This document shows positions 1 through 60,407 of a stretch of 64,000 nucleotides of DNA, one piece after another. The notes under the pieces were generated by a model. The model was not told the origin of the DNA. It did no database searches and saw nothing but the letters and a program-made list of their open reading frames with translations. Every line of letters starts with the position of its first letter. The stretch's first letter is position 1. This DNA comes from a virus: the IMG/VR virus record IMGVR_UViG_3300014885_000003, positions 4,737 through 68,736 of that record; one strand, written 5' to 3'. A program made the position numbers and the translations under genes.

Positions 1-653
1 TTCGATCGAACACAGCGCAGGCTGGCGGCGCGAACGACGAGATCATCCTCGACGCCGCCGCTTCGGCCGTCGACGGATTCTACAATGGGATGGTCGTTCG
101 CCTGACGGGCGGCACGGGTCAGTTCCAGATCCGTGAAGTCGTCGCATACACGGGTGCGACCAAGAAGGCTCGGGTCAACCGAATCTGGACTGCGAACCCC
201 GACGCCACCACGACATTCAAGATCTCGAAGGGCATCCTCTTCGAGAAGACTCCATTCGAGATCCTGGAGGTTCGCCGACCGTTCTACAACGCATCGGCCA
301 ATGCTCCGGGCGGGGGAGCAGTCGCGTACTACGAGAAGATCTTCTGCGCCAACACGCACGCGACACTGACGCTGACCGCGGCCAAGGTGATCGAGTCGTC
401 GGACCCCTCGACCAAGATCACGTTCGCCAAGGAGACGGTGAACGACGGCACCGGGACCAACGGAGTCGGCAACAATCGGAAGGTCGCGCCCTCGGCCGGC
501 GTGTCGGCGTTCGACAGCGCGGACAAGGACGTGAACGGGCTGCAGTTGGATGCTGCCGAGACCATGGGCGTCTGGCTCAAGCTGTCGCTGGACGACGGCG
601 ACTCGGCGCAGAAGACGACCTACACGCCGCGCCTCCGAGGTAACACGGTCTAG
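1..653 (+). CDS. Virion structural/tail-associated protein (5' partial)
   Basis: Frame open from the window edge to TAG at 653; Gly/Thr/Ala-rich beta-type composition; first gene of the tail block. Confidence 0.55.
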   Translation, partial: RSNTAQAGGANDEIILDAAASAVDGFYNGMVVRLTGGTGQFQIREVVAYTGATKKARVNRIWTANPDATTTFKISKGILFEKTPFEILEVRRPFYNASANAPGGGAVAYYEKIFCANTHATLTLTAAKVIESSDPSTKITFAKETVNDGTGTNGVGNNRKVAPSAGVSAFDSADKDVNGLQLDAAETMGVWLKLSLDDGDSAQKTTYTPRLRGNTV

Positions 654-682
654 GAGGTGTGATCAGAGCATAGGAGAACAGA

Positions 683-1981: not shown

Positions 1982-1984
1982 GTT

Positions 1985-2464
1985 GTGCCGGACCTGGGAG
2001 ACATCGGAAAGGCGAAGGAGCAAGCCGAAATCTGGGCTCAGTCTCAGGTTGGGTCTCAGTACTTCAAGGGTGTTCGTCTAAAGAAGGGTAGCCAAGGCCA
2101 GGAGTTTCTTCCTAGGAATACATCGCCCTCTTTGACAATCGGAAACCCAGTACCATCATTCCAGCAAGGTCCTGATTCTCGTGTTGGCCCTTTCTCATTA
2201 CCGTTGGAGGCTGGTACATACGGAGTGACGATTGATGTCCTCTTCGATCATGACGAGGCGCCGTATCCATTGGTCCGTATTCGAGGCCGCGCTGACTCTG
2301 GACTTGTGGCGGACGCTACGGCTTCAGCGATCTCGGGCACTGACTGGCAGATGATCACTGTATCGTTCACTCTACCTCGCGCTAGTGTGGTGGACATGTT
2401 CCTGGAGGTGCCATCGAAGAGAGAGGACATGCTGACGTGGTGGGACAACTTTAGCGTCTCGTAA
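1985..2464 (+). CDS. Hypothetical virion protein, possible carbohydrate-binding beta-sandwich
   Basis: WQMITVSF...WWDNFSV C-terminus resembles CBM-like domains. Confidence 0.4.
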   Translation: MPDLGDIGKAKEQAEIWAQSQVGSQYFKGVRLKKGSQGQEFLPRNTSPSLTIGNPVPSFQQGPDSRVGPFSLPLEAGTYGVTIDVLFDHDEAPYPLVRIRGRADSGLVADATASAISGTDWQMITVSFTLPRASVVDMFLEVPSKREDMLTWWDNFSVS

Positions 2465-2473
2465 TATATCTCA

Positions 2474-3406
2474 ATGAGCACCGGCGCATTCGAGTTCTTC
2501 CGCGATGGTGTGCCGGTACTACACACCACCGACACAGGAGCCTTTTCATTCTTTCGAGAAGGCTCCCCCATCCTGGAGTCTCAGGCCACTGTTGAAAATG
2601 AGCTGAATGGCGGGACTGGGATACCAGTTGAGTCGCAGGCCACACTTGAGGCCGGAACGTCAATCCCTGCCGAGAGTCTGGCCCTGGATCAGGATAATCG
2701 AGGCGCGCCGGTTGAGTTCCTGGCCAGTCCTGACGCTGGTAACGAAATCCCGATGGAGTGGGATGGAACTGAGCCGCTAGAGACCGGAGCGAGCGCTCCG
2801 GTTGAATGGCTTGCGGAACATTCGGCCGGCACGACTGTTCCAGTTGAATGGGGAATCGTTGACGTCACGGCTGGCAATCAAGTGCCAGTCGAAGTGCTGT
2901 CTAGTCTTCAAGCGTCTCCTTCTGCTCCAGTTGAGATCTCGGCAAGCGCTGATGCTGGTAATGAGATCCCTGTGGAGAGCGGCGGGACTGAGCTGCTTCT
3001 CGGCGGGACAGAGATCCCGGTTGAGTCACTCCAAACTCTCCAGACTGCCGGGTCAGCTCCAGTTGAAATCTCTGGCCGTACAGGTTTCGATCTGCTTCAC
3101 AGTTGGGACGTCATTCATGTTCTCGATACGCCTCTACTACACGAATGGAACATTGTTCGAGAGACCATCCAAGGCGCAGAGCTAGAGCACTCATGGGATG
3201 TTATCCAGGTCTTGCTAGCACTCGCGCACGAATGGCGTATTCTGAATGGAGACATCATCGACTTGTTCAATGCGAACACGGGGACCGGCGGATCATCTGG
3301 CGGAGCGCCAACGAACCCTGATAGCTCATGGGTCGACGGAGGCGCAGCGGTAAACATCGGAGATGACATCATGATGCCGGTAGGACGGGTGACCAAGAAT
3401 GCCTGA
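2474..3406 (+). CDS. Repeat-containing structural protein
   Basis: About 12 imperfect [IAV]P[VAM]E repeats, four LxHxW repeats, duplicated TGAFxFFRxG at the N-terminus. Confidence 0.55.
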   Translation: MSTGAFEFFRDGVPVLHTTDTGAFSFFREGSPILESQATVENELNGGTGIPVESQATLEAGTSIPAESLALDQDNRGAPVEFLASPDAGNEIPMEWDGTEPLETGASAPVEWLAEHSAGTTVPVEWGIVDVTAGNQVPVEVLSSLQASPSAPVEISASADAGNEIPVESGGTELLLGGTEIPVESLQTLQTAGSAPVEISGRTGFDLLHSWDVIHVLDTPLLHEWNIVRETIQGAELEHSWDVIQVLLALAHEWRILNGDIIDLFNANTGTGGSSGGAPTNPDSSWVDGGAAVNIGDDIMMPVGRVTKNA

Positions 3407-5186
3407 CCTGGATGCGAGTAGCTTTAGTATTCGCGCAAACCTCGGCGTTCCTGCTGATCAGTTTGACGCTGAGGTCGCGTCACCGGATGAGTGGGTCGAT
3501 GCAGATGATACCGACCGCATTTCGCTTCAGCTTGGTCTCATGAAGGCGGATGAGACAGAAGTTCTAATCTCTCACCTCGTCGACGGAGTTATTGACGAAT
3601 ATACCATTCGTGTTACTCCTGATGAGATCATCACGACCGTTCAGGGTCGTGATGGCATGGCGATCACACTGGATCGACAAGTCAATAAGACGTACCCTCG
3701 CGGCGCAGCGCAAGGCGGTACAGCTGATCGAGTCGACGCTGATGTATCGATCAAGGCCATTAAGCCGGAGATCGCGCCGACCGGCCGTTGGAGAGCGTCG
3801 GAAATTGCAGGGGACGTGATGGCTGAAGTCAGTATGCTTCAAGTCTCGTGGCAGGTTCGGGATTACGAACTGCGAGTGGACTTCAATGCGTCAGGGAGAC
3901 CGCTCGATATTCTTCGCCAACTCGCTGAACCTTGGGGTCAGGCCGAGTCCTCGCCGGTTGACATCTTCGTTGAAGGATCAGTCGTGATCGTTCGTAATCG
4001 CACACCTCAGCCAATCGAGGCATCGGCGTATCGATTCCATATCCGCGACGCTCGGATCAAGGACTTAACGATAACCAAGAGACCTCCGAAGCGTCTTGGC
4101 CGTGTGATCCTGGACGGCATGCTGATCCAGCCGAAGGACGATGTGGGAGTGGCGGCCTTCGAACTTAGTGATCCAACCCTTGACATCGAAGAGCGAAACA
4201 TCAAGGACGTGACGTCCAGCGAGGTCTCTGTCGTACGAGGCCCGGACGGACTGATCTTGGCTCAGACGTCTTCATCCATGAAGTATCGAATGCCTGATGG
4301 TGTCATGCTGGGACAAACCAAGACCACGCTGACTCAGCGTGGCAACGGTATGGAACTCACCCAGCGAGAGACGGTCGTCAATACCTGGGAGACAATTGAG
4401 TACGATCAAGGCGGGCGACCCCTGAAGCAACCGAACCAGTTGAGTGGAACGACAACGATAGAAGGCATTCATCCTGCGGACAAGAGCGGCACGTTCCAAG
4501 TGCTTCGGACAGAGGGATCTGGATTCGCGTATGACTCGGACAACTTCCTGACGATGACGACCACGGAGAAGCGGGAACTTAATCTGAGAAGTCGCGCTCT
4601 GGAAAAGCGGGAAATGGTCATTCGTCACTATCGAGACGTCGGACCGTTACTCTATGAGTTGACGACGACGACGTTTCAGTTCAACACTAAAGGAAACCGA
4701 TGGGACATTCTGAACCACGAAGTCACGCCAGGCGCTGGTCTACGACCTGGAGGACCTGGTCGATCGAAGACGTTCTTTATTCCAAAGGATGTTCTCAATC
4801 CAAGGAACCCAGGCGCTCCCGGTACCGGGATGCTGGTTCCGATCCAGTTGGACGAGACCATTTCGACGGACCCGCGAGCCGTTGACTTCACATACAGCAA
4901 TGAGAACTTGACGCTGGAGGATCTCCAGTACATCATGGCCCAACTTAGGGCTGGATCTGATCTATGGGAAGTTGAACTGACGTTCAATGCGATCACAATG
5001 CCGTGGCTGAAGAAGGGATCAGCGGTCTTCTTCTACGGACTGGAAAAGCCTGACGCGACGGCGATTGAGTTGAAGCCTGCGGTCGTGCTAGAAGTAAATA
5101 CGAGGTATGACGAGAGTTCGGAGGAGCCTTCCATGATTTCGAACGTGCGTTCCGTGTACTGGTTCGCTGTGCCGGTCATGGTCTGA
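3399..5186 (+). CDS. Putative baseplate hub/tail protein
   Basis: 595 aa; N-terminal GVIDE...VQGRD pattern typical of gpD/gp27-like hubs; tail context. Confidence 0.5.
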   Translation: MPDLDASSFSIRANLGVPADQFDAEVASPDEWVDADDTDRISLQLGLMKADETEVLISHLVDGVIDEYTIRVTPDEIITTVQGRDGMAITLDRQVNKTYPRGAAQGGTADRVDADVSIKAIKPEIAPTGRWRASEIAGDVMAEVSMLQVSWQVRDYELRVDFNASGRPLDILRQLAEPWGQAESSPVDIFVEGSVVIVRNRTPQPIEASAYRFHIRDARIKDLTITKRPPKRLGRVILDGMLIQPKDDVGVAAFELSDPTLDIEERNIKDVTSSEVSVVRGPDGLILAQTSSSMKYRMPDGVMLGQTKTTLTQRGNGMELTQRETVVNTWETIEYDQGGRPLKQPNQLSGTTTIEGIHPADKSGTFQVLRTEGSGFAYDSDNFLTMTTTEKRELNLRSRALEKREMVIRHYRDVGPLLYELTTTTFQFNTKGNRWDILNHEVTPGAGLRPGGPGRSKTFFIPKDVLNPRNPGAPGTGMLVPIQLDETISTDPRAVDFTYSNENLTLEDLQYIMAQLRAGSDLWEVELTFNAITMPWLKKGSAVFFYGLEKPDATAIELKPAVVLEVNTRYDESSEEPSMISNVRSVYWFAVPVMV

Positions 5187-5422
5187 TGCCAAATCCTACC
5201 TTCGCTCAAGCAGTGCGGTTGATCGCTGAGAAGACTGGAGGAGGTGTCAAGCGCGCTCGGATCGCCTCGACTGTCGGTGACAGCGCAGCAGTGCAGTTCA
5301 GTAGCTCGGTGACCGGAAGTGTCAGCACGACCGATGAACCTCTTTTCCCTGGTGATTCTGTATGGGTTCAGCCAATCGTAGGACGTGGAGGCACTATCGT
5401 CGCGATTCACGGCCGTGCCTGA
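5186..5422 (+). CDS. Small OB-fold-like baseplate protein
   Basis: TGATG coupling; PGDSVWV motif resembles the spike/gpV N-terminal OB fold. Confidence 0.45.
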   Translation: MPNPTFAQAVRLIAEKTGGGVKRARIASTVGDSAAVQFSSSVTGSVSTTDEPLFPGDSVWVQPIVGRGGTIVAIHGRA

Positions 5423-7721
5423 TCCAACGATTGGTCAGGCGTTCACAGAACTAATCAAGAAGACCCGAGGTCTGTCCCCGTCAGGAGCGCCGACCACCTT
5501 CGAACGTGTCGAAGCTACGTATGATGATGGTACTGCACAAGTTCTTGGGCAGCGCATTCCCATCTCCGGTATAGGGCCTGTTCAGGTGGGTGAGCGTGTC
5601 GTGGTCGCATGGAAGGACAAGCGGCCTCTGACGATCATTAAGCACTCCGCACGCCGTACTACAGTAGAGACTCCATCGCCTAGAGGAGGCAAGATCGTCG
5701 AGGAGCTATTCATTGCTACCAATAACGGAGTACTCGATATCTGGTTCAGGAACGCCAATCAGAACGTCCCTCTGGGTCTGTCATCGAACTGGGCCGGGTC
5801 TCCAGCCAACTTGAACACGCCGATCGAAGTGCGGTGGGGACAGGACAGGGCGCACTTCGTTGTGCGCACTGGCACTCCAACAGCAGGAGACATCACCAAC
5901 CAAGGCGCACACCCTTATGCATTCCTTCGCATAGTACAGGAGTTCTATGTTTTCGAGCTGACGAGGCAGAGCGAGACGACTCCAGTCGGTTCCTTTGCTG
6001 CCTCCGCGACACTGACCGGGAAGTTCCAGCCATACGGGGCGAACGGCACGTTCAATGTCTACAGCTTCGTCACACACTTCCATGCGGAAGCCGCGGTGTG
6101 GGGCCAGAAGTTCGATAAGACACAGACAGTCGGTGCAGCGTTCGTATCTATCGTGACTGATGACGACGTGGAGGCTGACACTGTTGATGATCGTACAGTC
6201 ACCCGGTCCTTGAAGTTGCAGGACATCTTGAATGGAGTCAATACTGAGTTCACGGACTCCATCAGTCTTGAGCTAGTGCGCCGTGTCTTCTACGGCACCA
6301 TCCAAGACTTCGGGACGAGCCGAGATGGCAAGTTGATGCTGGTGCTGTTGTTCAACTTGCACAACCTTGGCGATACGCTTTCAAGTGGAGGGACAGGAAG
6401 CATCACCGGAGACGCGCTCACAAGCTCTGGAGGAGTCGGCAACCCGACGCCGGAAGCCCCGGGAGATCCGGACTGCGCGGTCACTACAGTCTCCGCGGCG
6501 CGCAACCCTCAAGTCGTGCAGTCTCCCATTCGAGGGCACTTTGGAGGAGGGTCATTCGGCGAAGGCCACTTCATAGTTGTCAATATGCAGGACCAGACCG
6601 TGACGTGGATGTCGCTGAAGAACGCTGCCACGCTGGAGGGCATTTTCCGCACGACCATTCGGTATAACCCGATGTTGGTAAAGACTCTGTTCTCTGACTC
6701 GTCTCCTCCTGGTAGCGGGACCACGTGCTCGTTCAACTTGTTCTCGTTCAATTTGGCGGGCACTGGAGTGACGGAGCGTTTGTCTTTCACGGACCCGGAT
6801 GGGAGCGGGTGGATCACCAGGAAGATGCACTTGTGGGAGGAGACTAAGTTCCCGTTCATTGATGCAAGCGCGAACATGTTGGACGTGGACAGCACGTCGC
6901 TAGTTACTGAGTCAAATCTGTACACTCCATTCTCGTCAGGAACAGTCTCGGTGCCTCCAATTTCATCTCTCTCTGTGTTGAACATTGGTGTTCGATACAT
7001 CAAGAAATCGTTTGAGGAGCCTGGCAACTGGACCTATCGCATCAAGCAATCGATCCTGCTTGAGAGTGCAATCGAAGAACAGGGCGCCGAGCGTATACCA
7101 GCGGTCATTGCGGTTGTGGTTGACAGAGTTCGTCGACTCGTGCCGGTCGTCAGTCCATTCTTTGGAAAGGAGATCGGGGCGTTTGTCGTGACAGATACTG
7201 GCCAGCTCTTGGCGACGCTGTCTCCATTTACCACCACGAACGTAGCAACAGCCGCGACAAACGAAGATCGTTTTGCTTTGGGCAATGTGAAGGATGATGG
7301 CTCGAACATTATCCTCATGGCTGGGAACCGCTATCACGTGGTGTGGCGGAAGGAGAAGGACGCGGTCATTCAGGTTTTCCTGACACACGCTCAGAGCAAC
7401 ACAACGATTCAGATTGGAATAGACCTTGCAAAGTATCAGTCCCGAGGGCTCCTGGTGCTGAAGCGAGATTGGATGTACGACACCAAGGAGGACGAGGCTG
7501 GCCGGAAGTTTGTTGAGGCGTGGGACTTTGATACTGGGGCTCCGTCGCTCTCCATTGCAGCTCAGGACTTTCCTCCGGAGGATGTTGCGATGCAGCAAGT
7601 GAAGCAGCTGCTGGATTTAGAGGACGGGCAGGCCCCGCTCTTGGCGGCCACGTCCTATCAGGTGATCAACAGCCAGCAGATACTCAGCCCAGTCGGTCGG
7701 TTCAAGGAAGAAGGCACGTGA
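5415..7721 (+). CDS. Large tail spike/receptor-binding-like protein
   Basis: GTG start overlapping the previous stop; N-terminus paralogous to 5186-5422 (VGERVVV); beta-rich body. Confidence 0.5.
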   Translation: MPDPTIGQAFTELIKKTRGLSPSGAPTTFERVEATYDDGTAQVLGQRIPISGIGPVQVGERVVVAWKDKRPLTIIKHSARRTTVETPSPRGGKIVEELFIATNNGVLDIWFRNANQNVPLGLSSNWAGSPANLNTPIEVRWGQDRAHFVVRTGTPTAGDITNQGAHPYAFLRIVQEFYVFELTRQSETTPVGSFAASATLTGKFQPYGANGTFNVYSFVTHFHAEAAVWGQKFDKTQTVGAAFVSIVTDDDVEADTVDDRTVTRSLKLQDILNGVNTEFTDSISLELVRRVFYGTIQDFGTSRDGKLMLVLLFNLHNLGDTLSSGGTGSITGDALTSSGGVGNPTPEAPGDPDCAVTTVSAARNPQVVQSPIRGHFGGGSFGEGHFIVVNMQDQTVTWMSLKNAATLEGIFRTTIRYNPMLVKTLFSDSSPPGSGTTCSFNLFSFNLAGTGVTERLSFTDPDGSGWITRKMHLWEETKFPFIDASANMLDVDSTSLVTESNLYTPFSSGTVSVPPISSLSVLNIGVRYIKKSFEEPGNWTYRIKQSILLESAIEEQGAERIPAVIAVVVDRVRRLVPVVSPFFGKEIGAFVVTDTGQLLATLSPFTTTNVATAATNEDRFALGNVKDDGSNIILMAGNRYHVVWRKEKDAVIQVFLTHAQSNTTIQIGIDLAKYQSRGLLVLKRDWMYDTKEDEAGRKFVEAWDFDTGAPSLSIAAQDFPPEDVAMQQVKQLLDLEDGQAPLLAATSYQVINSQQILSPVGRFKEEGT

Positions 7722-12944: not shown

Positions 12945-13594
12945 GAGACCCGTACGCGGAGTTTGCTGGAAAGAAGAAGACAAAAGAGAACACACTCGAT
13001 CGTCGGTGGAAGATGTGCAACATTCCTCCTATCAATCAACACGAGCCGCTGATGCATGCGTGGCTTCGTCACTGGATCAATGCTGATCCCCCCGACCCTC
13101 CAGGTGTCGTTCTCTGTGGGCCTCCTCGATCAGGCAAGACTGGCCAGGCAGTCGCGACGCTTCATGAAGCCGTTCGCCGATGTGTCGACATGGTCGGCTC
13201 CTGGAATCTGATCACGATCAGCGCAATGACTCGCGACGATGATGGGGAAGTGATCGTTGCTCCTGTCTGGTACGAGCGATGGGTCGACTTCGAAATCAGG
13301 ATGGGCAAAGCCTTGAAGGCATCGCGCCTGCGTCCGGAAGCTGATGGCCCTGATGATCTGGTCTACGCCCTGATCGAACGTGTCGCGGTCCTGGTCATCG
13401 ATGATGTCGAGGTCGGAGGGCGGTCGCCTCGGAAAGAGAAGGTCATGGCGCAACTGATCGGAGCCAGGAGCGACGACGGGAAGCGCACGATCTTCGTCAC
13501 TGCATCGAACCCACAAGACTTCATCGATGAGTTCGGCACGAACGTCGGAGGCAAGCTGCTCGGGAGAGGGTTCGCCGTCTGGCCGATGCCATGA
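12941..13594 (+). CDS. DnaC/IstB-like helicase loader ATPase
   Basis: Walker A GPPRSGKT, Walker B VLVIDD. Confidence 0.75.
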   Translation: MRDPYAEFAGKKKTKENTLDRRWKMCNIPPINQHEPLMHAWLRHWINADPPDPPGVVLCGPPRSGKTGQAVATLHEAVRRCVDMVGSWNLITISAMTRDDDGEVIVAPVWYERWVDFEIRMGKALKASRLRPEADGPDDLVYALIERVAVLVIDDVEVGGRSPRKEKVMAQLIGARSDDGKRTIFVTASNPQDFIDEFGTNVGGKLLGRGFAVWPMP

Positions 13595-14964
13595 GCGACG
13601 ATTCGGTCCCGTCATGGTCTGACGCACTACAGCGCCGTGTGATCATGCTGGCCGTCGCTGACGATCTGCCCAGACGTCTACCAGACGCGTTCAGCGCCAG
13701 ACTGTTCGGCCCCAGTGAGTCCCGGGCTGGCAGGCCGACGTCGCCTAGGGCCCGTATCGCAGGGCACGTTGAGGCGTACTGGAAGACGTACCTGGAAATG
13801 CCTGGTACTGGAATCATGAACGACATCATCACGGCGGATCTTCTGAAGGTGCAGGACGCGGAACGGCAAGCCGTCGTCGATGAGTGGGAAGCCATCAAGA
13901 GCGTCAGTGACGGCCTCGGTCGTGATTGGGTTCTCCGACAAGTTCAGGAATGGATCGAACGACGGCGGCTCGAACAGTCCTTGCTGGAAGCCGCGAATGC
14001 GCTAGCTCGTGGTTCGTACTCCGATGCAGTGACCGCGGTCCAACGCGGGTGCCTTCCGGTAACAGGGATCTCGACAGAAGGAACGTCACTGTTCGAACTC
14101 GCACGAGAAGACATCCAACGATTCTGGATCGACGAAGATGCTGGTATTCACGTCCCGACTGGATTCGCAGCGCTCGACTCACTGCTAGACGGGGGACCGA
14201 CGAAGGGAGAATTTCACGTGGTTCTAGCGCCTCCGAAAGGCGCGAAGACATCGTTCCTGGTAAACGTCGCGCTCGGGGCCGCGCGTCGTCGATGGGGCGT
14301 CTTCCTGGCCACGTTCGAGATGCGGTCACGACGGATGCGGATGCGCCTGCATCGCGGGATGGCTCGGGCGGGTCGGAGAGTACTTCGTGAAGACCCGTCG
14401 ATCATCCGCCGCGCGTTCCAGGGCATGCGCGCAGTGGGAGCCGGCGACATTCACGTGATCGAGGCGTCACCTCAACAGGCAAAGGCATGCGTGATCGTCG
14501 CTGATCAAGTCAGAGATCTTCGGCGCCGCGGAGCCAAGATCGATGTCGTCGTTTTGGACTATCTGAACATCATGGGCGCCAGTCAGCAGGAACGGGAGAA
14601 GCGGCATGAACTGGCGCGGATCGCTCGTGACATGTCGGCGCTGGCGAAGGACCTTGATGTCGTCGTCTGGTCAGCTGGACTGGTGAACCGACAGGCGATG
14701 GATACAAAGTATCCGAAGAAGTCCGACATCGCGGAATCGTACGAGGTCGTTGCGGTCGCGGACGGAGTGTATGCAATCTTCGCTGATAAGAGCATGCGAT
14801 CGAATCGGCAAAAGGGATTGCACGCGGTCGCACTGCGGGAAGCAGAAGACGAGCGCAGGATCAGCGTCTATCGAGTCGACCTGGATCGACTCGTCTTCGA
14901 AGAAGAACGAGACGACGAACCTGACCCTGAACCAGGAACCGACGAAGGGAGCGAAGTCCTATGA
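13591..14964 (+). CDS. dnaB: DnaB-like replicative helicase
   Basis: PTGFAALD.LL.GG, APPKGAKT, TFEM, VVVLDYL, SDIAES motifs. Confidence 0.85.
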   Translation: MSDDSVPSWSDALQRRVIMLAVADDLPRRLPDAFSARLFGPSESRAGRPTSPRARIAGHVEAYWKTYLEMPGTGIMNDIITADLLKVQDAERQAVVDEWEAIKSVSDGLGRDWVLRQVQEWIERRRLEQSLLEAANALARGSYSDAVTAVQRGCLPVTGISTEGTSLFELAREDIQRFWIDEDAGIHVPTGFAALDSLLDGGPTKGEFHVVLAPPKGAKTSFLVNVALGAARRRWGVFLATFEMRSRRMRMRLHRGMARAGRRVLREDPSIIRRAFQGMRAVGAGDIHVIEASPQQAKACVIVADQVRDLRRRGAKIDVVVLDYLNIMGASQQEREKRHELARIARDMSALAKDLDVVVWSAGLVNRQAMDTKYPKKSDIAESYEVVAVADGVYAIFADKSMRSNRQKGLHAVALREAEDERRISVYRVDLDRLVFEEERDDEPDPEPGTDEGSEVL

Positions 14965-15197
14965 CGACGATCACAGTGGCCTGGAGACGTGTCGTGCAAG
15001 TCAAGCCGTACGAAAGTCTGGAGTTCCAACTAGGCATGACGGACACGCTGGACCGCGATCCGATCATGCCCTCTGATACGACTCAGGCAGTCGCAGCACG
15101 AGGCGCTCAGGTCGCGAAGATCGAGGCGGATCTGTATCGACAACTCGCACATGTGGGCAACGCGCTGGTCGCCGAGCAACTGGCTAAGCTGAAGTGA
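14961..15197 (+). CDS. Hypothetical protein
   Basis: Coupled to both neighbours; QVKPYES motif. Confidence 0.55.
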   Translation: MTTITVAWRRVVQVKPYESLEFQLGMTDTLDRDPIMPSDTTQAVAARGAQVAKIEADLYRQLAHVGNALVAEQLAKLK

Positions 15198-16186
15198 ACC
15201 TCGACGCGTACATTCGTTCTCGCGTCGCCATTCGAAACGACGATGGTGGACGAGGGTACGACGAAGGTATTCGGACGTTCGACTGTCCGCACTGCCACGA
15301 CAGGAAGGGCCGTGGATGGATGAACATCTTGCGGTGGACGGCCGGCTGCTGGAACCTCGGCTGCCTGGCCGAACCTCGTGTTGATGGCGGAGCGCTAGAG
15401 TGGGCTCGCGTCCTGGAAGACCTGAACACACGAGGTCGAACGTGGCACTTCCTGAACACGGAGTTTCCTGGGGAGTCGTCGTTTCAGCCGACGCGGTTGC
15501 TCAAGATCACCGACTGGTGTGTCTTCCCGAAGACAGCTCACTGGTTCTCGGACGAAGAGACTAGACTGGAATATCCGTATCGGATCTTCATCAAAGCGCA
15601 GTGGGGCCTTTCCCGTCTCGACGCGATCAAGTGGGAACTCGGCTGGTCGTTCGCAGGGCGTTACCGGCTTCGTGTGATCATTCCAATCATCATGGATCAT
15701 CGGCCTGTCGCGTTCCAGGCTCGGACGATTCATCCGATGGGAGAACCGAAGTACCTGACATCGAAGCATGGTGAGTACGGAACGATCGACTCGGAGTGCG
15801 GACGTCCTGCCCGTGCGTTGCTATTCAATCTGGACGCTGCGCCTTCGCAATCAGAGCTGATGCTGGTCGAAGGTCCGGGTGACGTCATGCAATGGACGAA
15901 GCGTCGACAGGACACCATCCCTTTCGGTCTGCTAGGAACAGCATTGACTCCGGAGAAAATCGGTCTGATCGCGATCCGGCGACCACGTCGCGTGATCGTC
16001 GCGCTTGACGCGGAACCGGAGGCGCAACGCCGGGCGCTCGCCCACGTGGAAGACCTTGAGGCGTGGGGAATCCCCGCCGTCCTGGGCACGTGGTCAGGAG
16101 GCAAGGACGCTGGTAGCGGCGCCAGGCTAGATGTCAAAGAGGCACTAGGTCTCGCTGATCAGATCCGCGCCCGCCTTCGTTCTTAA
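15194..16186 (+). CDS. DNA primase (Zn finger plus TOPRIM)
   Basis: CPHC...CWNLGC; IIPI...FQAR; LVEGPGD; ALDAE; KDAG. Confidence 0.85.
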   Translation: MNLDAYIRSRVAIRNDDGGRGYDEGIRTFDCPHCHDRKGRGWMNILRWTAGCWNLGCLAEPRVDGGALEWARVLEDLNTRGRTWHFLNTEFPGESSFQPTRLLKITDWCVFPKTAHWFSDEETRLEYPYRIFIKAQWGLSRLDAIKWELGWSFAGRYRLRVIIPIIMDHRPVAFQARTIHPMGEPKYLTSKHGEYGTIDSECGRPARALLFNLDAAPSQSELMLVEGPGDVMQWTKRRQDTIPFGLLGTALTPEKIGLIAIRRPRRVIVALDAEPEAQRRALAHVEDLEAWGIPAVLGTWSGGKDAGSGARLDVKEALGLADQIRARLRS

Positions 16187-16278
16187 CTAGTTGATCTTCA
16201 TGGAGTAAACCCGCATCGTAACTACTCAATAAATATACGCTACTTTTTGGTCCTTCGTACGGCCGTAACTGTTTGATA
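16184..16278. promoter_or_regulatory. Two IHF-consensus sites in an AT-rich intergenic region
   Basis: TAACTGTTTGATA (16266-16278) matches YAANNNNTTGATW exactly; TAACTAGTTGATC (16184-16196) has one mismatch. Confidence 0.5.
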
Positions 16279-16355
16279 CTCCAGAGAAAGATTTTTCAAA
16301 GTGCCTACTGTTTCCCCGGGGAATGACGATAACCTATGTGTAGGGACGAAGTAAA

Positions 16356-16546
16356 ACCGACCTAGACCCGGACGGTCGGTGGCCGAAAGGCCGCAGGTGC
16401 GGGGGCGAAGGTGGCAGGCCACGGACAAGCCACCGCAAGATACCGGGAGGGATTGACGTCCCTTCGGTCAGGACCAGCGGCACTGAAAAGTGCCTTGCAC
16501 TGGATCACCGGCACCGGGATCGAATCGCAACCCTGACGAACTCAGG
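16356..16546 (+). ncRNA. Highly structured leader RNA
   Basis: About seven consecutive hairpins, two with GAAA tetraloops; multibranch closed by GUGCGG/UUGCAC; no credible ORF. Confidence 0.55.
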
Positions 16547-16553
16547 AGCGTAA

Positions 16554-16646
16554 GCAGAGGGACAGGAACAGCCATGCGGAAGTAAGGTCCTAGTAGAGGC
16601 CATGAGCTGGTCCTGGTAATGCAGATGTCCGGTCCCAACTCCGGAC
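16554..16646 (+). ncRNA. Permuted twister-like ribozyme copy 1 (extended P1)
   Basis: GCAGAGGGAC-[long P1]-GGUAAUGC-AG-AU-GUCCGG-UCCCAACU-CCGGAC. Confidence 0.8.
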
Positions 16647-16661
16647 AGAAAGGGAATAACG

Positions 16662-16901
16662 ATGACGGCGAGAAACTGGATCGCTGAAGGTCGGTCGGTC
16701 GGAGTCCAGCCGGATGGAACGATTCATTACTACGCGGTAGCAGAACGGCCGAACGGAACGCTGACGCTGATGTACGTGACCAACTTCAAACAGCGGACCG
16801 TGAATCGGGAATGGCTGTCGACGACGTACGCGCCCGGCCGCAAGGGCGCAAAGGCAGCGGTGGATCATCTGAACGTTCTGAATTTTCCGCCGTCCGCGTA
16901 A
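16662..16901 (+). CDS. Small hypothetical protein (early-type cluster)
   Basis: AAGGG SD directly after ribozyme 1. Confidence 0.7.
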   Translation: MTARNWIAEGRSVGVQPDGTIHYYAVAERPNGTLTLMYVTNFKQRTVNREWLSTTYAPGRKGAKAAVDHLNVLNFPPSA

Positions 16902-16925
16902 GCAGAACGAAAAAGGAGAAACACA

Positions 16926-17102
16926 ATGATCAAGTCAGGCGACACGATTTTCGTGGTGGAAGTGATCGCGGACGACAGCGGAAAGTGGTGCGGCAACGGT
17001 CTGGAGTTCGCCTCGCGCGAAGCCGCTGAACAGTACGCGGCCGATCTATTCTCGCGGTGGTCGGCCGTACGCGAAACACGCGTGGTTCGCGGAACGAAGT
17101 AA
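16926..17102 (+). CDS. 58-aa hypothetical protein (not in ORF track)
   Basis: AAGGAG SD; MIKSGDTIFVVEVIADDSGKWCGNGLEFASREAAE...; stop abuts ribozyme 2. Confidence 0.7.
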   Translation: MIKSGDTIFVVEVIADDSGKWCGNGLEFASREAAEQYAADLFSRWSAVRETRVVRGTK

Positions 17103-17104
17103 AA

Positions 17105-17165
17105 GCAGAGGGACAGGAAGGCAACGCCCTTCCTGGTAATGCGCAGTCCGGTCCCAAGCCCGGAC
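17105..17165 (+). ncRNA. Permuted twister-like ribozyme copy 2
   Basis: GCAGAGGGAC-AGGAAGG..CCUUCCU-GGUAAUGC-GC-A-GUCCGG-UCCCAAGC-CCGGAC. Confidence 0.85.
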
Positions 17166-17182
17166 GAAAGGGAGAAACAACG

Positions 17183-17422
17183 ATGACGAAGAAGGATTAC
17201 GTGCTGATCGCGAACGCTATCCGCGCCGCTCACGGCGAGACCGGCAGTCATGTGGTCATCCGGACCGCCGAGCACATCGCGGAAGCGCTCCGTGGTTCGA
17301 ATCCGCTGTTCGATACCAGCAAGTTCATGGCAGCCGTTCGTGATCCGAAGGTGCCAGCGTTTTATCCCGTGACCGATCAGAACGGCAAGCGAATCCTCGT
17401 GACGATCCCGGAGACGAAGTGA
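17183..17422 (+). CDS. Small hypothetical protein (MTKKDYVLIA family)
   Basis: GGGAG SD after ribozyme 2; KDY.LIA...NP.FD..KF pattern common in phage proteins. Confidence 0.7.
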   Translation: MTKKDYVLIANAIRAAHGETGSHVVIRTAEHIAEALRGSNPLFDTSKFMAAVRDPKVPAFYPVTDQNGKRILVTIPETK

Positions 17423-17661
17423 TGGTCCGCGCGATCCTGCACTACTCGGTTCGGATTCCGCACTACTGGGTGTCGATCGGCGATCAGAACACGTCATTCA
17501 ATCGGAAGCCGCAAGCGCTAGCATTCCTCCGGAAGCACAACCGGCAGGTCGACGCGGAGAACGGAGCGGCGGTCCAGGCAGCGATTCGCCGATCAAAGGC
17601 GTTCCTAGCCGACGATTGCAGCGCGTGCTCGATCGGCCGCTGCCAGTATCACGGCGCATAG
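17419..17661 (+). CDS. Small hypothetical protein
   Basis: GTGA coupling; TAG overlaps the first G of ribozyme 3. Confidence 0.6.
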   Translation: MMVRAILHYSVRIPHYWVSIGDQNTSFNRKPQALAFLRKHNRQVDAENGAAVQAAIRRSKAFLADDCSACSIGRCQYHGA

Positions 17662-17719
17662 CAGAGGGACGGAGGCCTCCAGCCTCCGGTAATGCAGAAG
17701 TCCGGTCCCAACTCCGGAC
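17661..17719 (+). ncRNA. Permuted twister-like ribozyme copy 3
   Basis: P1 CGGAGGC/GCCUCCG; UAAUGC-AG pairs with loop CU. Confidence 0.85.
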
Positions 17720-17735
17720 AGGAAAGGGTCAAACG

Positions 17736-17936
17736 ATGAAGACGATCATGCTGTATCGAGGTATCAACGGATTTTGGTCGGCTGATGATGGATCGGCAAC
17801 GTACGAGACGGCCTATCACAGCACCGCGGATGCGATGGTTGTGCTATCTGGTGTGCGCGCGATTGTTCGCAGCCTTGATCCCGGTACGGAAGTGATCATC
17901 AAGTCAGGTCATGAAGCACAACCGGAGGTGATGTAA
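17736..17936 (+). CDS. Small hypothetical protein
   Basis: AAAGGG SD after ribozyme 3; TAATG coupling downstream. Confidence 0.65.
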   Translation: MKTIMLYRGINGFWSADDGSATYETAYHSTADAMVVLSGVRAIVRSLDPGTEVIIKSGHEAQPEVM

Positions 17937-18310
17937 TGAAGCTGTTCACGGCACGATACGCGGGGTTTTGCACGGGATGTTCTGCGGCAATCGAGCCGGG
18001 CGACCGGGTGCTGTTCGCGGGACAGAAGCGGATTTACTGCTCGGTGGAGTGTGAACGCGTGAACCACCGGATGACGGACGAAGAGATCAAGGCCGACAAC
18101 CGAGCAGCGTTCTTCGCCAGCATGCCGAAGAATCCTGGTGACGAGCGCTGCGACGATTGCAGCGGGACCGGAACGCGGATCTGGGGCGCGATCGTGAACG
18201 GTGTTCCGACGCATTCCGGAGTGTGCTTCCGGTGTCAGGGGAAGGGCAAGCAGAGCCTGGCTGATCGTCGCCGGAACTTCACGTACGACTGCCACCGTCA
18301 GGCGGTCTAG
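17936..18310 (+). CDS. Zinc-finger protein (DnaJ-like CxxCxGxG repeats)
   Basis: CTGC, CSVEC, CDDCSGTG, CFRCQGKG. Confidence 0.7.
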   Translation: MKLFTARYAGFCTGCSAAIEPGDRVLFAGQKRIYCSVECERVNHRMTDEEIKADNRAAFFASMPKNPGDERCDDCSGTGTRIWGAIVNGVPTHSGVCFRCQGKGKQSLADRRRNFTYDCHRQAV

Positions 18311-18371
18311 CAGAGGGACAGGAAGGCAACGCCTTCCTGGTAATGCGCAGTCCTGGCCCCAAGCCCAGGAC
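18310..18371 (+). ncRNA. Permuted twister-like ribozyme copy 4
   Basis: P4 variant GUCCUGG/CCAGGAC with a compensatory extra pair; loop CCCCAAGC. Confidence 0.85.
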
Positions 18372-18387
18372 AAAAGGAGGGAAGACG

Positions 18388-18648
18388 ATGACGAAGAAGA
18401 CCAGAGAGGCAGCAAATCTCAGCGCGGCCGACGCGCGAGTTACCCGAGTCGTCAAGCTGGGCACTCCTCAAGCTGTCATCATCGAACAGGCCAGCGCTAT
18501 CCTGACGCAACTTGATCGGGTCCGCGCGAACGTGGAAGCGCGACGCAACGAAGCCGAAACGACCTTCTTCATCAACTGGGCTCACGTCGGCGATCTTCGC
18601 CATGTGCGAGATCTGCTCGACGAAATCACGACATTCCTGAGAGCGTGA
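18388..18648 (+). CDS. Small hypothetical protein (INWAHVGDL motif)
   Basis: AGGAGG SD after ribozyme 4. Confidence 0.7.
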   Translation: MTKKTREAANLSAADARVTRVVKLGTPQAVIIEQASAILTQLDRVRANVEARRNEAETTFFINWAHVGDLRHVRDLLDEITTFLRA

Positions 18649-18651
18649 AAA

Positions 18652-18858
18652 ATGACCAGGTTTTCTCGGAGGCATTACCGGCTCCTGTCGAATGGAGGCC
18701 TGGACACGGCAGAACAGATTGCCGATCGGCTTCGCTACAGCGCCGCTGCTGAACGGGCGATTCGAGATCGTGAGGAACTGTTTCCGGTGCTGACGGCCGA
18801 TAATGCGGCCGAAGCGATCGCATGGCAAGAACGTCGAATCAGGGAGCTGACGTCATGA
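18652..18858 (+). CDS. Small hypothetical protein
   Basis: Tightly packed ORF. Confidence 0.55.
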   Translation: MTRFSRRHYRLLSNGGLDTAEQIADRLRYSAAAERAIRDREELFPVLTADNAAEAIAWQERRIRELTS

Positions 18859-19076
18859 AGGCAGGCGACATCCTGATGTACCGCACGACGCGGGTTCGGT
18901 TCGTGGAAATGACGACGGACGGTCTGGCCAGGATCGACCGGAACGGCGAGTCCTGGCAGGTGCTGGCCAGCGAGCTGAAGCCGGTGCCGAAGCGCCGGAA
19001 CGTTCGCGACCAGGTCTACCGTGATCTCGGGATGGTCAAGGTTCGAGGCGCCCTCGGAGGCGTGTATCACGAGTAA
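18855..19076 (+). CDS. Small hypothetical protein
   Basis: ATGA coupling; C-terminal LGMVKVRGALGGVYHE; stop abuts ribozyme 5. Confidence 0.6.
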   Translation: MKAGDILMYRTTRVRFVEMTTDGLARIDRNGESWQVLASELKPVPKRRNVRDQVYRDLGMVKVRGALGGVYHE

Positions 19077-19077
19077 T

Positions 19078-19137
19078 CGCAGAGTGACGGGCGCCCGCGG
19101 CCCGGGAATGCGGCAGGCCGGGTCACAAGCCCCGGCC
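19078..19137 (+). ncRNA. Permuted twister-like ribozyme copy 5 (divergent)
   Basis: GAGUG/UCAC replaces GAGGG/UCCC (compensatory); P4 GGCCGGG/CCCGGCC; G rather than U before the cleavage-site A. Confidence 0.8.
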
Positions 19138-19153
19138 GGAAAGGCGACAAACG

Positions 19154-19474
19154 ATGACGACTCATCGATACTTCGAAGACGCGTTTACGAGTGTGGCGGA
19201 GGTTCTGAACGGCGGGTTCGAGCAGCTCTTCGGAAACTACGGCGACGACTTCGGCACGATGGTCCGACGGACGGTGACCTTCTTCCGCGACAACGGCCGG
19301 GCTGATGTCGCATCGACGTTTCAGGCATCGCTTGGTCTGGTCAACCTCACCGCAGGTCGGACCGGCAAGGTGGATCGTGAGGACTTCGATGCCGACGCGC
19401 TGGACGCGCTCGACACGGTGTTCTACGGTCAGTCGGATTCGGTCAAGCACCTGTTCCCTGAGGAGGCCGCATAA
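19154..19474 (+). CDS. Hypothetical protein
   Basis: SD after ribozyme 5; TAATG coupling downstream. Confidence 0.65.
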   Translation: MTTHRYFEDAFTSVAEVLNGGFEQLFGNYGDDFGTMVRRTVTFFRDNGRADVASTFQASLGLVNLTAGRTGKVDREDFDADALDALDTVFYGQSDSVKHLFPEEAA

Positions 19475-19740
19475 TGGCGAAGGCGAAGAAGACGGTCCAG
19501 GTGGAAGCGATCAGGGAGCGCGTGAACAACCTCTTGACGATCGACAACGAACACGTGACAGCCGACTTCAGGAAGGGCGCCGCGTCGGTCCTGGAAACGG
19601 TCCTACATGCCGCGAACGCGTACCGCGGGTTCCAGTACAACGCCTGGTCGGAAGGCGGGTACACGCGCTGGCAAGCGGACGGTGAGCCGAAGGATAAGAC
19701 ACCGTACCTCGGCGATCAGACCAAGCGGTACTACTACTAG
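19474..19740 (+). CDS. Hypothetical protein
   Basis: LETVLH...YRGFQY...RYYY pattern; TAG overlaps ribozyme 6. Confidence 0.7.
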   Translation: MAKAKKTVQVEAIRERVNNLLTIDNEHVTADFRKGAASVLETVLHAANAYRGFQYNAWSEGGYTRWQADGEPKDKTPYLGDQTKRYYY

Positions 19741-19801
19741 CAGAGGGACGCGATGTCTTCGGGCGTCGCGGTAATGCAGAGGTCCGGTCCCAACTCCGGA
19801 C
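19740..19801 (+). ncRNA. Permuted twister-like ribozyme copy 6
   Basis: P1 CGCGAUGUC-UUCG-GGCGUCGCG, unrelated in sequence to the other P1 stems; core conserved. Confidence 0.85.
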
Positions 19802-19817
19802 AGGAAAGGGTCAAACG

Positions 19818-19901
19818 ATGAATCCGTCCTTGCTGAATCGTCCGTTCGGATGGGCGCTGATGATCGCGGCGTCGCAGTGCATCGCGTGGGTGTTCGCATG
19901 A
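19818..19901 (+). CDS. 27-aa hydrophobic peptide (not in ORF track)
   Basis: Same GGAAAGGGTCAAACGATG initiation region as the gene after ribozyme 3. Confidence 0.5.
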   Translation: MNPSLLNRPFGWALMIAASQCIAWVFA

Positions 19902-19923
19902 CCAGACAGGAGAAAGGCTAAAA

Positions 19924-20145
19924 ATGCTCTGGAAAGTCCGGCTCACCGCCCGCTGGATCAGCGCCAGCCGCGGCCATAATCAGCGCGGTGTCGTTCGCGT
20001 CCTGGCCGTCGTCGCGGATGATCCCGCGCTCGCCCAGAACATGGCGATCACTCGCGTCGCGACTCCGACGAAGCATGGCGCGTACACCAACGTCAGCGTC
20101 GTCAGGATCGACGCGGTTCAGGATGGCATCATCAGCGTTCGATAG
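19924..20145 (+). CDS. Small hypothetical protein
   Basis: AGGAG SD. Confidence 0.6.
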   Translation: MLWKVRLTARWISASRGHNQRGVVRVLAVVADDPALAQNMAITRVATPTKHGAYTNVSVVRIDAVQDGIISVR

Positions 20146-20163
20146 GAAAAGGGGGAAGGACCG

Positions 20164-20415
20164 ATGAGACTCTACGTCGTCACCATCCGTATTCACGTGA
20201 CCGCGAAGATGGATCGAGTCATCAAGTACATCGTCATGGCGAACGGCGCGCCAGCTGCCACGAAGAAAATTGCCGCGGTCTATCCTGACGCGACGATCGA
20301 TGTTCAGCAGTGGAACGCCGACGCTATGCTGTTCGCGCAGTACAACGAAGGCGTCAAGCCGAACCGTTTCACCAGGGCCGAGGTCGCATCGATCTCAAAA
20401 GGCCTGAACTCCTAG
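20164..20415 (+). CDS. Small hypothetical protein
   Basis: Purine-rich SD; TAG overlaps ribozyme 7. Confidence 0.65.
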   Translation: MRLYVVTIRIHVTAKMDRVIKYIVMANGAPAATKKIAAVYPDATIDVQQWNADAMLFAQYNEGVKPNRFTRAEVASISKGLNS

Positions 20416-20474
20416 CAGAGGGACAGGAAGGCAACGCCTTCCTGGTAATGCGCAGTCCGGTCCCAAGCCCGGAC
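20415..20474 (+). ncRNA. Permuted twister-like ribozyme copy 7
   Basis: Near-identical to copy 2. Confidence 0.85.
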
Positions 20475-20487
20475 GGAAAGGTCAATC

Positions 20488-20943
20488 ATGTCGGACTACT
20501 CTACGATCGACACGAAGTACGGAATGATTCGGATCAGTATCACGGACGGCGATCACATCTTCATCAGCGCCGCGGACGCTGTGACGTTCTGGGGCGTTCG
20601 CTATAGCCTCAGTGTTCACCTTGTCCGATACGAGGACGGCTGGGCGATCCAGCGTGATGGCCACGGACGGACGCGGTGGGACTGCCTGAGCGGCACGCGG
20701 CAGCGCTGGACGAATTACAATCAGGCGGGGCTGTCGGCCGGTGCCAGGAAGCGCGTGGCCGAGGAGATCGTTCCTGTCGTCGCGAAGTGGGCGAGCGAGA
20801 ACTCGGATCTGATCGACGTCGCCCAGCACAAGCACATCGAAGCGGAAATCGCTCGGCGGGAGGAGAAGATCGCGGAGCATCAGAACGCAATCACCGAGCT
20901 GGTAACGGAAATCATCGCGCTGAGAGAAGGGGTGGCAAGGTGA
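20488..20943 (+). CDS. Hypothetical protein with C-terminal coiled coil
   Basis: GAAAGG SD after ribozyme 7. Confidence 0.65.
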   Translation: MSDYSTIDTKYGMIRISITDGDHIFISAADAVTFWGVRYSLSVHLVRYEDGWAIQRDGHGRTRWDCLSGTRQRWTNYNQAGLSAGARKRVAEEIVPVVAKWASENSDLIDVAQHKHIEAEIARREEKIAEHQNAITELVTEIIALREGVAR

Positions 20944-22333: not shown

Positions 22334-22444
22334 TCTGCCCTCGCTGTGGTCGACCGATGGTCGGATGGCTGGTGGTACGGCCGGACCGTTGTAGTCCGAA
22401 GTACTGGGTCAACTGTATTCGCAACCCGAAGTGAAAGGGACACC

Positions 22445-24049
22445 ATGAAGCTGATCGACTCACTCAAGGCGATCCGTCGCACGTCAACTCCCCTGGTCGG
22501 TATCGAGTCGCCCGATCCCGGAGCGACGATCCAGGTCATTCGCGCAGCGTTCGAGGAAGGCACGACACCGCTACCGCTCTTCCGGTGGGACATCAGCAAC
22601 GGCCTGTCGCCGATGAACAAGTCCGGTCTGGAGATCATGCGGAAGCTGTTGAGCGGCACGGAGCCGAACGAGTGGCCCGGTATGACGTCGAACCCGGGAC
22701 AGTGCCTGGTGCTTCTTCAGAACCTTCCCGGTGAGGACAACGAAGGCGACAAGGTGACTTGCCGGGCTCCCATGGTGTTCTTCCTCAATCCGCAACTGTT
22801 CGTCAGCGGCGACAAGCCGGACGAGCCGACGATCCAAGGCATCTGGAACCTGCGCGACCTGTTCAAGCAGGACCGCCGGACGCTGATCATGCTCGGGACG
22901 TCTCTCCGGATGCCTCCGGAGTTGTCGCAGGACGTGATCATTCTGAAAGAACCGCTGCCGGCAGACGATCAGCTCGGTGAGATCATCGCGGCTCAGATGG
23001 AGGGCTTCGGCCTGAAGCTGACCGATAACGTCAAGGCGCAGGCGATCGACGCAACCCGAGGTCTGTCCGCCTTCGTGGCAGAGCAGGCGACGGCCATGTC
23101 GATCGGCGACGAAGGGATCATCCTCGGCGACCTCTGGGAACGCAAGCGGACCGCGATCGAGCAGACCCGCGGTCTATCGGTCGATCGTGGGTCGGAAGAC
23201 TTCGCCTCGATCGGTGGTCAGAGTCAGATTAAGAAGTTCGGGACGCTGCTCCTGAAGTCGCCTCGGCGCCCTCGGTTGTTCGTCCGGATCGATGAGCTGG
23301 AGAAGATGCTCGGCGGAGCCGGCACCCGAGGAGCAGGCGACAATACGGGCGTGTCGCAGGATAGGCTCGGAACGATCCTTCGGGAGATGGAAGACAACGA
23401 TTGGACCGGGCTCCTGGCCGTCGGCCCTGCCGGTTCCGGAAAGTCGCTCCTCAGCAAGGCCCTCGGCAACTCCTCCGATCCGCAGGTCATGAGTATCGCG
23501 ATGGACCTTGGCGCCATGAGTTCCGGTCGGGTCGGCGCGTCTGAGACCTTGATTCGTGATGCGATGCGGACGATCAAGGGCGTTGCCGGTCCTGGAGGCG
23601 CGTTCTTTATCGCGACTGTCAACAAGCTGGACGTCCTACCGCCGGAGCTGCGACGCAGGTTCCGAATGGGCATCTGGTTCTTCGATCTTCCTGACGCTGA
23701 TGAGCTTGCGAGTATCTGGGAGATTAACCTGGCCAAGTACAGCTTGGCGAAGTCGACCCGCGGAAAGGACATGATCGACGATACGAACCTGACCGGCGCC
23801 GACATCCGGAACCTGTGCGACATTGCGTCGCGCCTCGGGTGTTCGCTGAAGGAGGCGTTCCAGTACATCACACCCATCGCGGTGTCCGATCCTGACTCGA
23901 TCGATAACCTTCGTCGGACCGCTGACGGTCGGTTCCTGTCGGCGTCGAAGCCAGGCCCGTACCGGATGGGTGATCCGCTGGTGAAGGTCACGACGAACAT
24001 CTCAGCGACGGCAGCTCCACGCCGAGCGCGATTCGGAGAGGAGCGATGA
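22445..24049 (+). CDS. Ycf46-like AAA+ ATPase with rearranged ATPase core
   Basis: Degenerate N-terminal AAA domain (WDISNGL, PPEL, PLP), IGG motif, RIDELEK, GPAGSGKS, ATVNKLDVLPPELRRRF, FFDLP, TGADI. Confidence 0.85.
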   Translation: MKLIDSLKAIRRTSTPLVGIESPDPGATIQVIRAAFEEGTTPLPLFRWDISNGLSPMNKSGLEIMRKLLSGTEPNEWPGMTSNPGQCLVLLQNLPGEDNEGDKVTCRAPMVFFLNPQLFVSGDKPDEPTIQGIWNLRDLFKQDRRTLIMLGTSLRMPPELSQDVIILKEPLPADDQLGEIIAAQMEGFGLKLTDNVKAQAIDATRGLSAFVAEQATAMSIGDEGIILGDLWERKRTAIEQTRGLSVDRGSEDFASIGGQSQIKKFGTLLLKSPRRPRLFVRIDELEKMLGGAGTRGAGDNTGVSQDRLGTILREMEDNDWTGLLAVGPAGSGKSLLSKALGNSSDPQVMSIAMDLGAMSSGRVGASETLIRDAMRTIKGVAGPGGAFFIATVNKLDVLPPELRRRFRMGIWFFDLPDADELASIWEINLAKYSLAKSTRGKDMIDDTNLTGADIRNLCDIASRLGCSLKEAFQYITPIAVSDPDSIDNLRRTADGRFLSASKPGPYRMGDPLVKVTTNISATAAPRRARFGEER

Positions 24050-59929: not shown

Positions 59930-60407
59930 AGTTCCAGTCGGTCGACATCTTCGAACTGGTGACGGACGATGACTACGCGATCGTCGCCCAACTCAAGGAT
60001 ATGAGAGTCATGTGTGTCAGCGGAAACGCGGACGCCCACGATCGTGACGGGAAAGTCGTCGCTCGTATCGAAGGATCATGGGAGGAGGCCGAAGCAGTAA
60101 CGATCGGTGACGACCACATCAAGATTCAAGGGCACCTGGTGACACATCGCCTAACCAAGAACGGATTCGGCTACTGGGTTTGTCGGCCATGACTGGCACC
60201 GAAGCGCTCGCACGACTGATTCAGATCGCACAGCAGAACTCCCGTGACCCGGAAGACATCGAAGCCATTCAGATCATGCAGGAGTTCGTCGATGCGGAGG
60301 ACGAGATCTTAGATGAATACGAAGCCTGAGGAGCCGAAGATCGGATGGGCGCTGGTCATCGCGTTGGTGGCGATAGCAGTGAGTCTGATCGCCTTCTTCG
60401 CTGGCCG

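Follow-up and report, generated by a model that had tools for sequence, protein, structure and literature searches.

Type-P5 twister ribozymes without a P5 helix, an ordinary form of their family, in a seven-copy array between small phage genes

Introduction

The twister class of self-cleaving ribozymes was reportedly described by Roth et al. in 2014. Twister types are named by the stem that holds the termini of the molecule, those of type P5 lying 'within stem P5'; the helices P1, P2 and P4 are essential and P0, P3 and P5 optional (PMC5408937). Because type P5 is defined in this manner, a reader of reviews would expect to find a P5 stem, and the naming is probably the source of the premise of a closing P5 stem in a preliminary description of the locus reported here. 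PMC11662667 treats P5/L5 hairpins for non-permuted twisters only. In the literature consulted, we found no text on P5-less members of type P5.

Regarding arrays, a close described system is that of the hammerhead ribozymes clustered in prophages. According to the portion of Perreault et al. (2011, PMC3088659) available to us, these hammerheads flank prophage genes, implying the processing of long phage transcripts, for which gene-length mRNAs are the proposed outcome. Such processing is suggested for twister as well in the available extract of PMC6765202, which calls the biological reason for these ribozymes undetermined.

The window analysed here is a whole stretch of 64,000 nucleotides of viral DNA (positions 4,737 to 68,736 of the IMG/VR record IMGVR_UViG_3300014885_000003). 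An element starting at position 17105 of this window had been described as a twister permutation opened at the P5 position and apparently devoid of a P5 helix. This element, the second of seven copies, is an ordinary instance of a known ribozyme family and no new ribozyme architecture.

Materials and methods

Ribozymes were searched with Rfam cmscan, the gathering score of the Twister-P5 model (RF02684) being 37.6 bits, and secondary structures were predicted with RNAfold. In a MAFFT alignment of the seven window copies, P1 was misplaced in copy 3, as were the 3' strands of P4 in copies 4 and 5; the pair counts were therefore obtained by parsing each sequence directly.

For comparison, viral contigs were scanned with a core sequence pattern, which returned at least 118 loci. 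Among the matches listed, 137 elements had enough flank and gave 134 non-redundant ones, including the seven window copies; they are called the listed elements below. Direct parsing covered 133 of the 134, one row from L035 being left out. The Rfam check covered 18 of the at least 118 loci, namely the multi-copy loci and a few others. The flank-length test was carried out on 117 of the 134 elements, leaving out 17 with a P4 counted at less than 3 bp.

Results and discussion

A standard member of the type-P5 twister family

With Rfam cmscan, copy 2 was recognized as Twister-P5 (RF02684) at 17104-17163 on the + strand, with 58.1 bits and an E-value of 1.8e-09. The match covers the model from position 1 to 58 of 58 and is not truncated, every upper-case consensus position is matched in the alignment, and Twister-P5 was retained as the best model after clan competition (CL00120). 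As the preliminary description had it, cmscan and the direct parse agree on an element running in permuted order from the GCA strand of P2 to P4. This order fits a circular permutation that places the termini at the P5 position, with P4 at one end and the far P2 strand at the other, and the essential helices P1, P2 and P4 are all present, P1 having 8 pairs and an A.G cap. In twisters, the scissile bond links a U next to P1, which is less conserved, to an A that is highly conserved (PMC5408937); the predicted cut was therefore placed between U17137 and A17138, which directly follow the 3' strand of P1. The parts of copy 2 and its immediate flanks are as follows.

17100..17102, + strand: TAA ending the upstream ORF of 58 aa (16926-17102); the ribozyme follows after 2 nt
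17105..17165, + strand: core of copy 2 (Rfam 58.1 bits; direct parse; MFE fold)
17105-17107 (GCA) with 17140-17142 (UGC), + strand: P2, 3 bp by direct parse
17108-17112, + strand: L1 strand GAGGG, by direct parse
17113-17121 with 17128-17136, + strand: P1, 9 positions including the A.G cap, loop at 17122-17127
Between U17137 and A17138, + strand: predicted cleavage site, followed by AA (parse and position given in PMC5408937)
17143-17144, + strand: linker GC, by direct parse
17146-17150 with 17161-17165, + strand: P4, 5 bp, with a 10-nt L4 at 17151-17160
17166..17185, + strand: purine-rich SD-like stretch and ATG at 17183 (79-aa ORF 17183-17422), unpaired in the predicted fold

Taken alone, the 61-nt core has an RNAfold MFE structure consisting of exactly P2, P1 and P4 (-25.6 kcal/mol, z -2.34), and its energy was equalled by 4 of 200 shuffles. 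The element has two pseudoknots in addition, pairing GGG of L1 with CCC of L4 (T1) and the linker GC with GC of L4 (T2). When the flanks are included (17085-17200), the SD is unpaired, the RNAfold structure is no better than those of shuffles (z -0.32), and no closing helix around copy 2 appears in it. In copy 3, a pairing of a short segment immediately upstream of the element with part of the downstream coding region, seen in the MFE structure with flanks, was rejected (z -0.94, with a differing centroid).

The segment 17105-17165 is thus very probably a standard member of the known type-P5 twister family RF02684, in its normal P5-less form. Copy 2 is probably active as a self-cleaving ribozyme.

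An array of seven copies

The window holds seven full-length RF02684 matches by Rfam cmscan, all on the + strand, from 16553 to 20472 and with 44.3-58.3 bits. An Rfam search of the whole 68.7-kb IMG/VR record returned the same seven Twister-P5 matches and none besides. The six copies that accompany copy 2 are:

16553..~16647, + strand: copy 1, 44.3 bits; predicted cleavage after 16617; start codon 16662
17660..17719, + strand: copy 3, 56.0 bits; predicted cleavage after 17690; start codon 17736
18309..18371, + strand: copy 4, 49.9 bits, 6-bp P4; predicted cleavage after 18341; start codon 18388
19078..19137, + strand: copy 5, 50.3 bits; predicted cleavage after 19106; start codon 19154
19739..19801, + strand: copy 6, 52.6 bits; predicted cleavage after 19772; start codon 19818
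20414..20474, + strand: copy 7, 58.3 bits; predicted cleavage after 20446; start codon 20488 (151-aa ORF)

All seven copies retain every conserved core nucleotide and all pairings. Compared with RF02684, nothing of substance differs: the order of the parts (P2 strand, L1, P1, U-A, P2 strand, linker, P4/L4), the conserved nucleotides, the two pseudoknots and the lack of P5 are the same. The variations consist of a P2 of 3 rather than 4 bp in six of the seven copies, a 40-nt insertion within the P1 loop of copy 1, and a G in place of the U 5' of the scissile bond in copy 5, which is also the sole window copy with a 4-bp P2 (C19078 pairing with a G). Copy 5 might be slower-cleaving given this G at -1, a nucleotide found there in 3 of the 133 parsed elements among the matches listed. 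P4 measures 5-6 bp in the window and is most often of 5 bp among the matches listed. One P1 sequence is shared by copies 2, 4 and 7, and copy 1 has the same P1 base. The seven copies are not independent, some of them being recent duplicates, and they amount to about four distinct P1 sequences, all of which pair.

Both pseudoknots show compensatory variation. Within the window, the G of L1 and the C of L4 that the other copies share are replaced in copy 5 by U and A; a linker AG goes with CU in L4 in copies 1, 3 and 6, and GC with GC in copies 2, 4, 5 and 7. Among the matches listed, 129 of the 133 parsed elements have a Watson-Crick pair at the L1-L4 position (U-A 85, G-C 35, A-U 6, C-G 3). 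The linker-L4 dinucleotide pairs in 112/133 of the same listed elements when its register is set by the fourth P2 pair, whereas 1000 shuffles averaged 61.6 and never exceeded 74. This P2-dependent register replaced a fixed one, in which just 62/133 of the listed elements were paired; allowing either register gave 133/133 among them and was discarded as too permissive to serve as evidence.

The P5-less form is the normal form of the family

On the observations themselves, the preliminary description was accurate. No copy in the window has complementary flanks: depending on the copy, 124-492 of 500 shuffles do as well as or better than the duplex energy of its 20-nt flanks. By direct parse, 7/7 copies have the A.G juxtaposition at the P1 base. 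It went on to claim an unusual minimal form, which is not borne out. The structure line of RF02684 comprises P2 (4 pairs), P1 (8) and P4 (3), with no enclosing helix. Among the matches listed, the flanks of 134 elements have a mean duplex energy of -5.36 kcal/mol versus -5.30 for partner-swapped controls, and junction-anchored helices of at least 4 bp occur in 15/134 (11.2%) of these elements versus 11.6% of controls. Varying the flank length (10, 15, 20, 30 and 40 nt) for 117 elements among the matches listed gave one-sided p values of 0.42-0.86 against partner-swapped controls, and the same pairing test applied to P1 strands as a positive control gave p 2e-55. An anchored helix of 5 bp was seen in 3/134 elements among the matches listed, versus about 4% of controls at 5 bp or more; considered as candidate P5 stems, the three were taken as chance.

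A reading of the copies as a twister architecture that is both new and minimal, with type P5 in an open form deprived of the closing stem of known permutations and structurally interesting on that account, would agree with the definition of three types by the stem of their termini (PMC5408937), and with window copies that truly lack P5 and mostly have a P2 of only 3 bp. Yet the curated Rfam model, which the seven copies match end to end, is itself without P5, and no flank test on the 134 listed elements exceeds its controls. The remaining traits are also widespread in the set: among the matches listed, a 3-bp P2 is found in 44 of 133 elements, the other 89 having the fourth pair, and A.G at the P1 base is the commonest combination with 71 of 133, ahead of G.U (30), C-G (10) and G-C (8). 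The claim of novelty falls because the model has no P5, the flanks of natural viral elements stay at control level, and P5 is optional in PMC5408937; we leave a new architecture scarcely any chance. The architecture is that of the Twister-P5 model, and by the preliminary description's own criterion, whether twister-P5 members commonly share it, both the Rfam model structure and the 134-element comparison go against novelty. Jointly with the identity of the element, we therefore hold with high confidence that type-P5 twisters are normally open and P5-less, the set being one of viral contigs chosen by the core pattern.

Placement between genes

The seven copies are laid out in the same way, each with a stop codon before it and, after it, an SD-like, purine-rich stretch leading to a start codon. 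In 7/7 copies, 0-2 nt separate the upstream TAA or TAG from the initial G of the element or the two overlap, the overlap being illustrated by the TAG of copy 3, and the predicted cut lies 41-47 nt from the start codon in 7/7. A comparable placement is found among the matches listed, where 101/134 elements have a stop that overlaps the first G or ends at most 9 nt before it, and 71/134 have one ending between 2 nt upstream of that G and the G itself. An SD-like motif and a start codon follow within 45 nt of P4 in 109/134 elements among the matches listed.

The array occupies one block of small genes on the + strand of an uncultured phage, and genes for a DnaB-like helicase and a Toprim/primase-like protein lie directly upstream of it. 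In a Pfam search of ten proteins encoded at 13591-18855, the ORFs at 18822-20943 being left out, only the helicase and the primase-like protein could be named and the eight small ORFs stayed below threshold. No promoter-like or terminator-like site was found on the + strand inside the array by scans that were at chance level.

Several features of the neighbouring ORFs can be mentioned. The 124-aa ORF between copies 3 and 4 (17936-18310) is Cys-rich and resembles the DnaJ CXXCXGXG zinc finger at a sub-threshold 20.8 bits (cut-off 32.7). The start codon after copy 6 opens an ORF of 27 codons only (19818-19901), encoding a hydrophobic peptide; other frames hold the longer ORFs that come next (19924-20145 and 20164-20415). 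Copy 1 is preceded by about 250 nt without a credible ORF (16300-16550) and may release a non-coding leader.

A proposed role in transcript processing

We propose that the array cuts a long phage transcript into shorter messages. The RNA would cleave itself between U17137 and A17138. The upstream message would keep its stop codon and, because the cut falls 3' of that codon, stay translatable to its end, with the P1 hairpin and a 2',3'-cyclic phosphate at its 3' terminus. A 5'-OH would open the downstream message, whose leader of about 45 nt would comprise the P4 hairpin and a free ribosome site. The geometry of the predicted products is the one claimed beforehand, the 5' product ending with the P1 hairpin plus one U and the 3' product starting with AAUGC, followed by P4 and then the SD. 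The element had also been said to be held together by two pseudoknots in addition to P2. Its two halves are joined only by P2 and by the pseudoknot of L1 with L4; that of the linker with L4 lies wholly inside the 3' half. With only a 3-bp P2 and the 3-bp L1-L4 pseudoknot between them, the two products should part quickly. Over the seven repeats, a long transcript would yield messages of one to three genes each, and their leaders would be uniform. For this processing role, the balance of probability is somewhat favourable; blended into one judgement with the type-P5 twister identity and the normal P5-less form, it belongs to an overall explanation that we regard as quite likely.

In synthetic biology, RiboJ insulators use a self-cleaving ribozyme and a small hairpin to remove the upstream RNA context and leave a defined leader before the ribosome site. 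Such RiboJ-type parts are engineered, hammerhead-based and not natural twisters, and their likeness to the array is one of function only. A natural counterpart is offered by the clustered prophage hammerheads, likewise self-cleaving ribozymes lying close together and flanking single genes or short blocks of phage genes in the available portion of PMC3088659. They differ in belonging to another ribozyme class and in that transcripts of about 2 kb from three tandem arrangements were cleaved in vitro, according to that same portion, whereas the window array is known from sequence. The regular placement of the ribozymes in the 134 listed elements bears on the role of bacterial and phage self-cleaving ribozymes, which the extract of PMC6765202 presents as undetermined.

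Alternative roles

The position of the stop codons could also reflect a gating of cleavage by translation, where a ribosome terminating on the upstream cistron blocks the folding of the ribozyme and the fate of the downstream message depends on upstream translation. The stops do cluster at the 5' edge of the element, within 2 nt in 71/134 and within 9 nt in 101/134 of the elements among the matches listed, as well as directly before or over the first G in all seven window copies; however, intergenic compaction in phages accounts for this adjacency equally well. Folding and cleavage of twisters are moreover fast in vitro (about 2.4 per min; Table 1, PMC5408937), making it plausible that the cut occurs during transcription, ahead of the ribosome, and we consider such gating unlikely. 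It is equally doubtful that the open P5-less form was selected for an interplay of translation and processing, in which the terminating ribosome would keep the ribozyme unfolded and the cut would free the uniform leader of about 45 nt, tuned for stability and re-initiation. If this were true, phage early genes would have in the array a natural insulator system that responds to translation.

The repeats might instead act mainly as DNA, by providing homologous boundaries for the exchange, gain and loss of gene cassettes, with a ribozyme activity that is secondary or decaying. Copies 2, 4 and 7 are indeed nearly identical, and copies 3 and 6 have common 3' halves that include the SD and the ATG. 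At 16899-16928, inspection by eye reveals the TAA of a 79-aa ORF, GCAGA (the first 5 nt of the element), a post-P4 tail like that of copy 2, an SD and the ATG at 16926, which together look like a ribozyme copy lost by deletion. But the core and the pairings are kept in all seven copies, the pseudoknot changes are compensatory, and about four P1 sequences differ and yet pair, which indicates selection on the RNA; a mainly DNA-level function is very unlikely on these grounds, bearing in mind that DNA and RNA roles are not mutually exclusive. The 5'-OH and 2',3'-cyclic phosphate ends left by self-cleaving ribozymes are substrates of RtcB-type ligases, and the fragments lying between the ribozymes could accordingly be ligated into circular RNAs. 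Such ends fit the ligase chemistry (PMC8782182, available part), and the option was raised for clustered hammerheads in the available portion of PMC3088659, where neither spliced nor circular products were detected for them. The non-complementary flanks of the elements would not bring the ends together either, and no ligase was seen among the ten proteins scanned at 13591-18855, leaving circularization highly improbable.

Related arrays and a cultured phage

In the 18 loci checked by Rfam, 52 full-length Twister-P5 matches and one pistol ribozyme were obtained, and Twister-P5 arrays are common in viral contigs. The viral contig L026 carries seven copies in about 4 kb (435-4262) and L034 six copies in 2.7 kb (2681-5405). 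The pistol ribozyme (RF02679, 53.8 bits) occupies 7070-7143 of the viral contig L100, and a Twister-P5 lies on the same stretch at 3054-3118, so that self-cleaving ribozymes of two classes are found here in a shared context.

A cultured representative, a soil phage, was identified as well. The genome of Tunturiibacter phage Tunturi_4 (PP885687.1) has four full-length Twister-P5 matches with 48-62 bits, all on the minus strand:

58349-58409, minus strand: Twister-P5 (Rfam)
59934-59991, minus strand: Twister-P5 (Rfam)
62165-62226, minus strand: Twister-P5 (Rfam)
63092-63149, minus strand: Twister-P5 (Rfam)

These copies occupy the gaps between the CDS gp88/gp87, gp87/gp86, gp81/gp80 and gp79/gp78, and are unannotated, no annotated RNA feature overlapping them in the stretch of the record that was retrieved. 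Tunturi_4 and the other phage contigs share with the window the succession of stop codon, ribozyme, SD and start codon; the genes flanking the other Twister-P5 arrays differ from those of the window, to which they are unrelated. Grown on T. empetritectus M8UP27, Tunturi_4 forms a cultured phage-host pair and a bench system for the processing hypothesis, and the regular placement of the ribozymes together with this system makes the question of their function testable.

The DNA of the window array had no blastn match among 50,697 phage records. RF02684 gave no match in Tunturiibacter phage Tunturi_3 either, in a search where the control genomes were also without a match and which leaves the absence unproven. 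This phage is the nearest isolate by AAA ATPase, the window protein (22346-24046) being 34% identical to its counterpart, which hints, weakly, at an acidobacterial host for the window phage. Further along the window, a tRNA gene is located at 61151-61222 on the + strand (RF00005, 54.5 bits).
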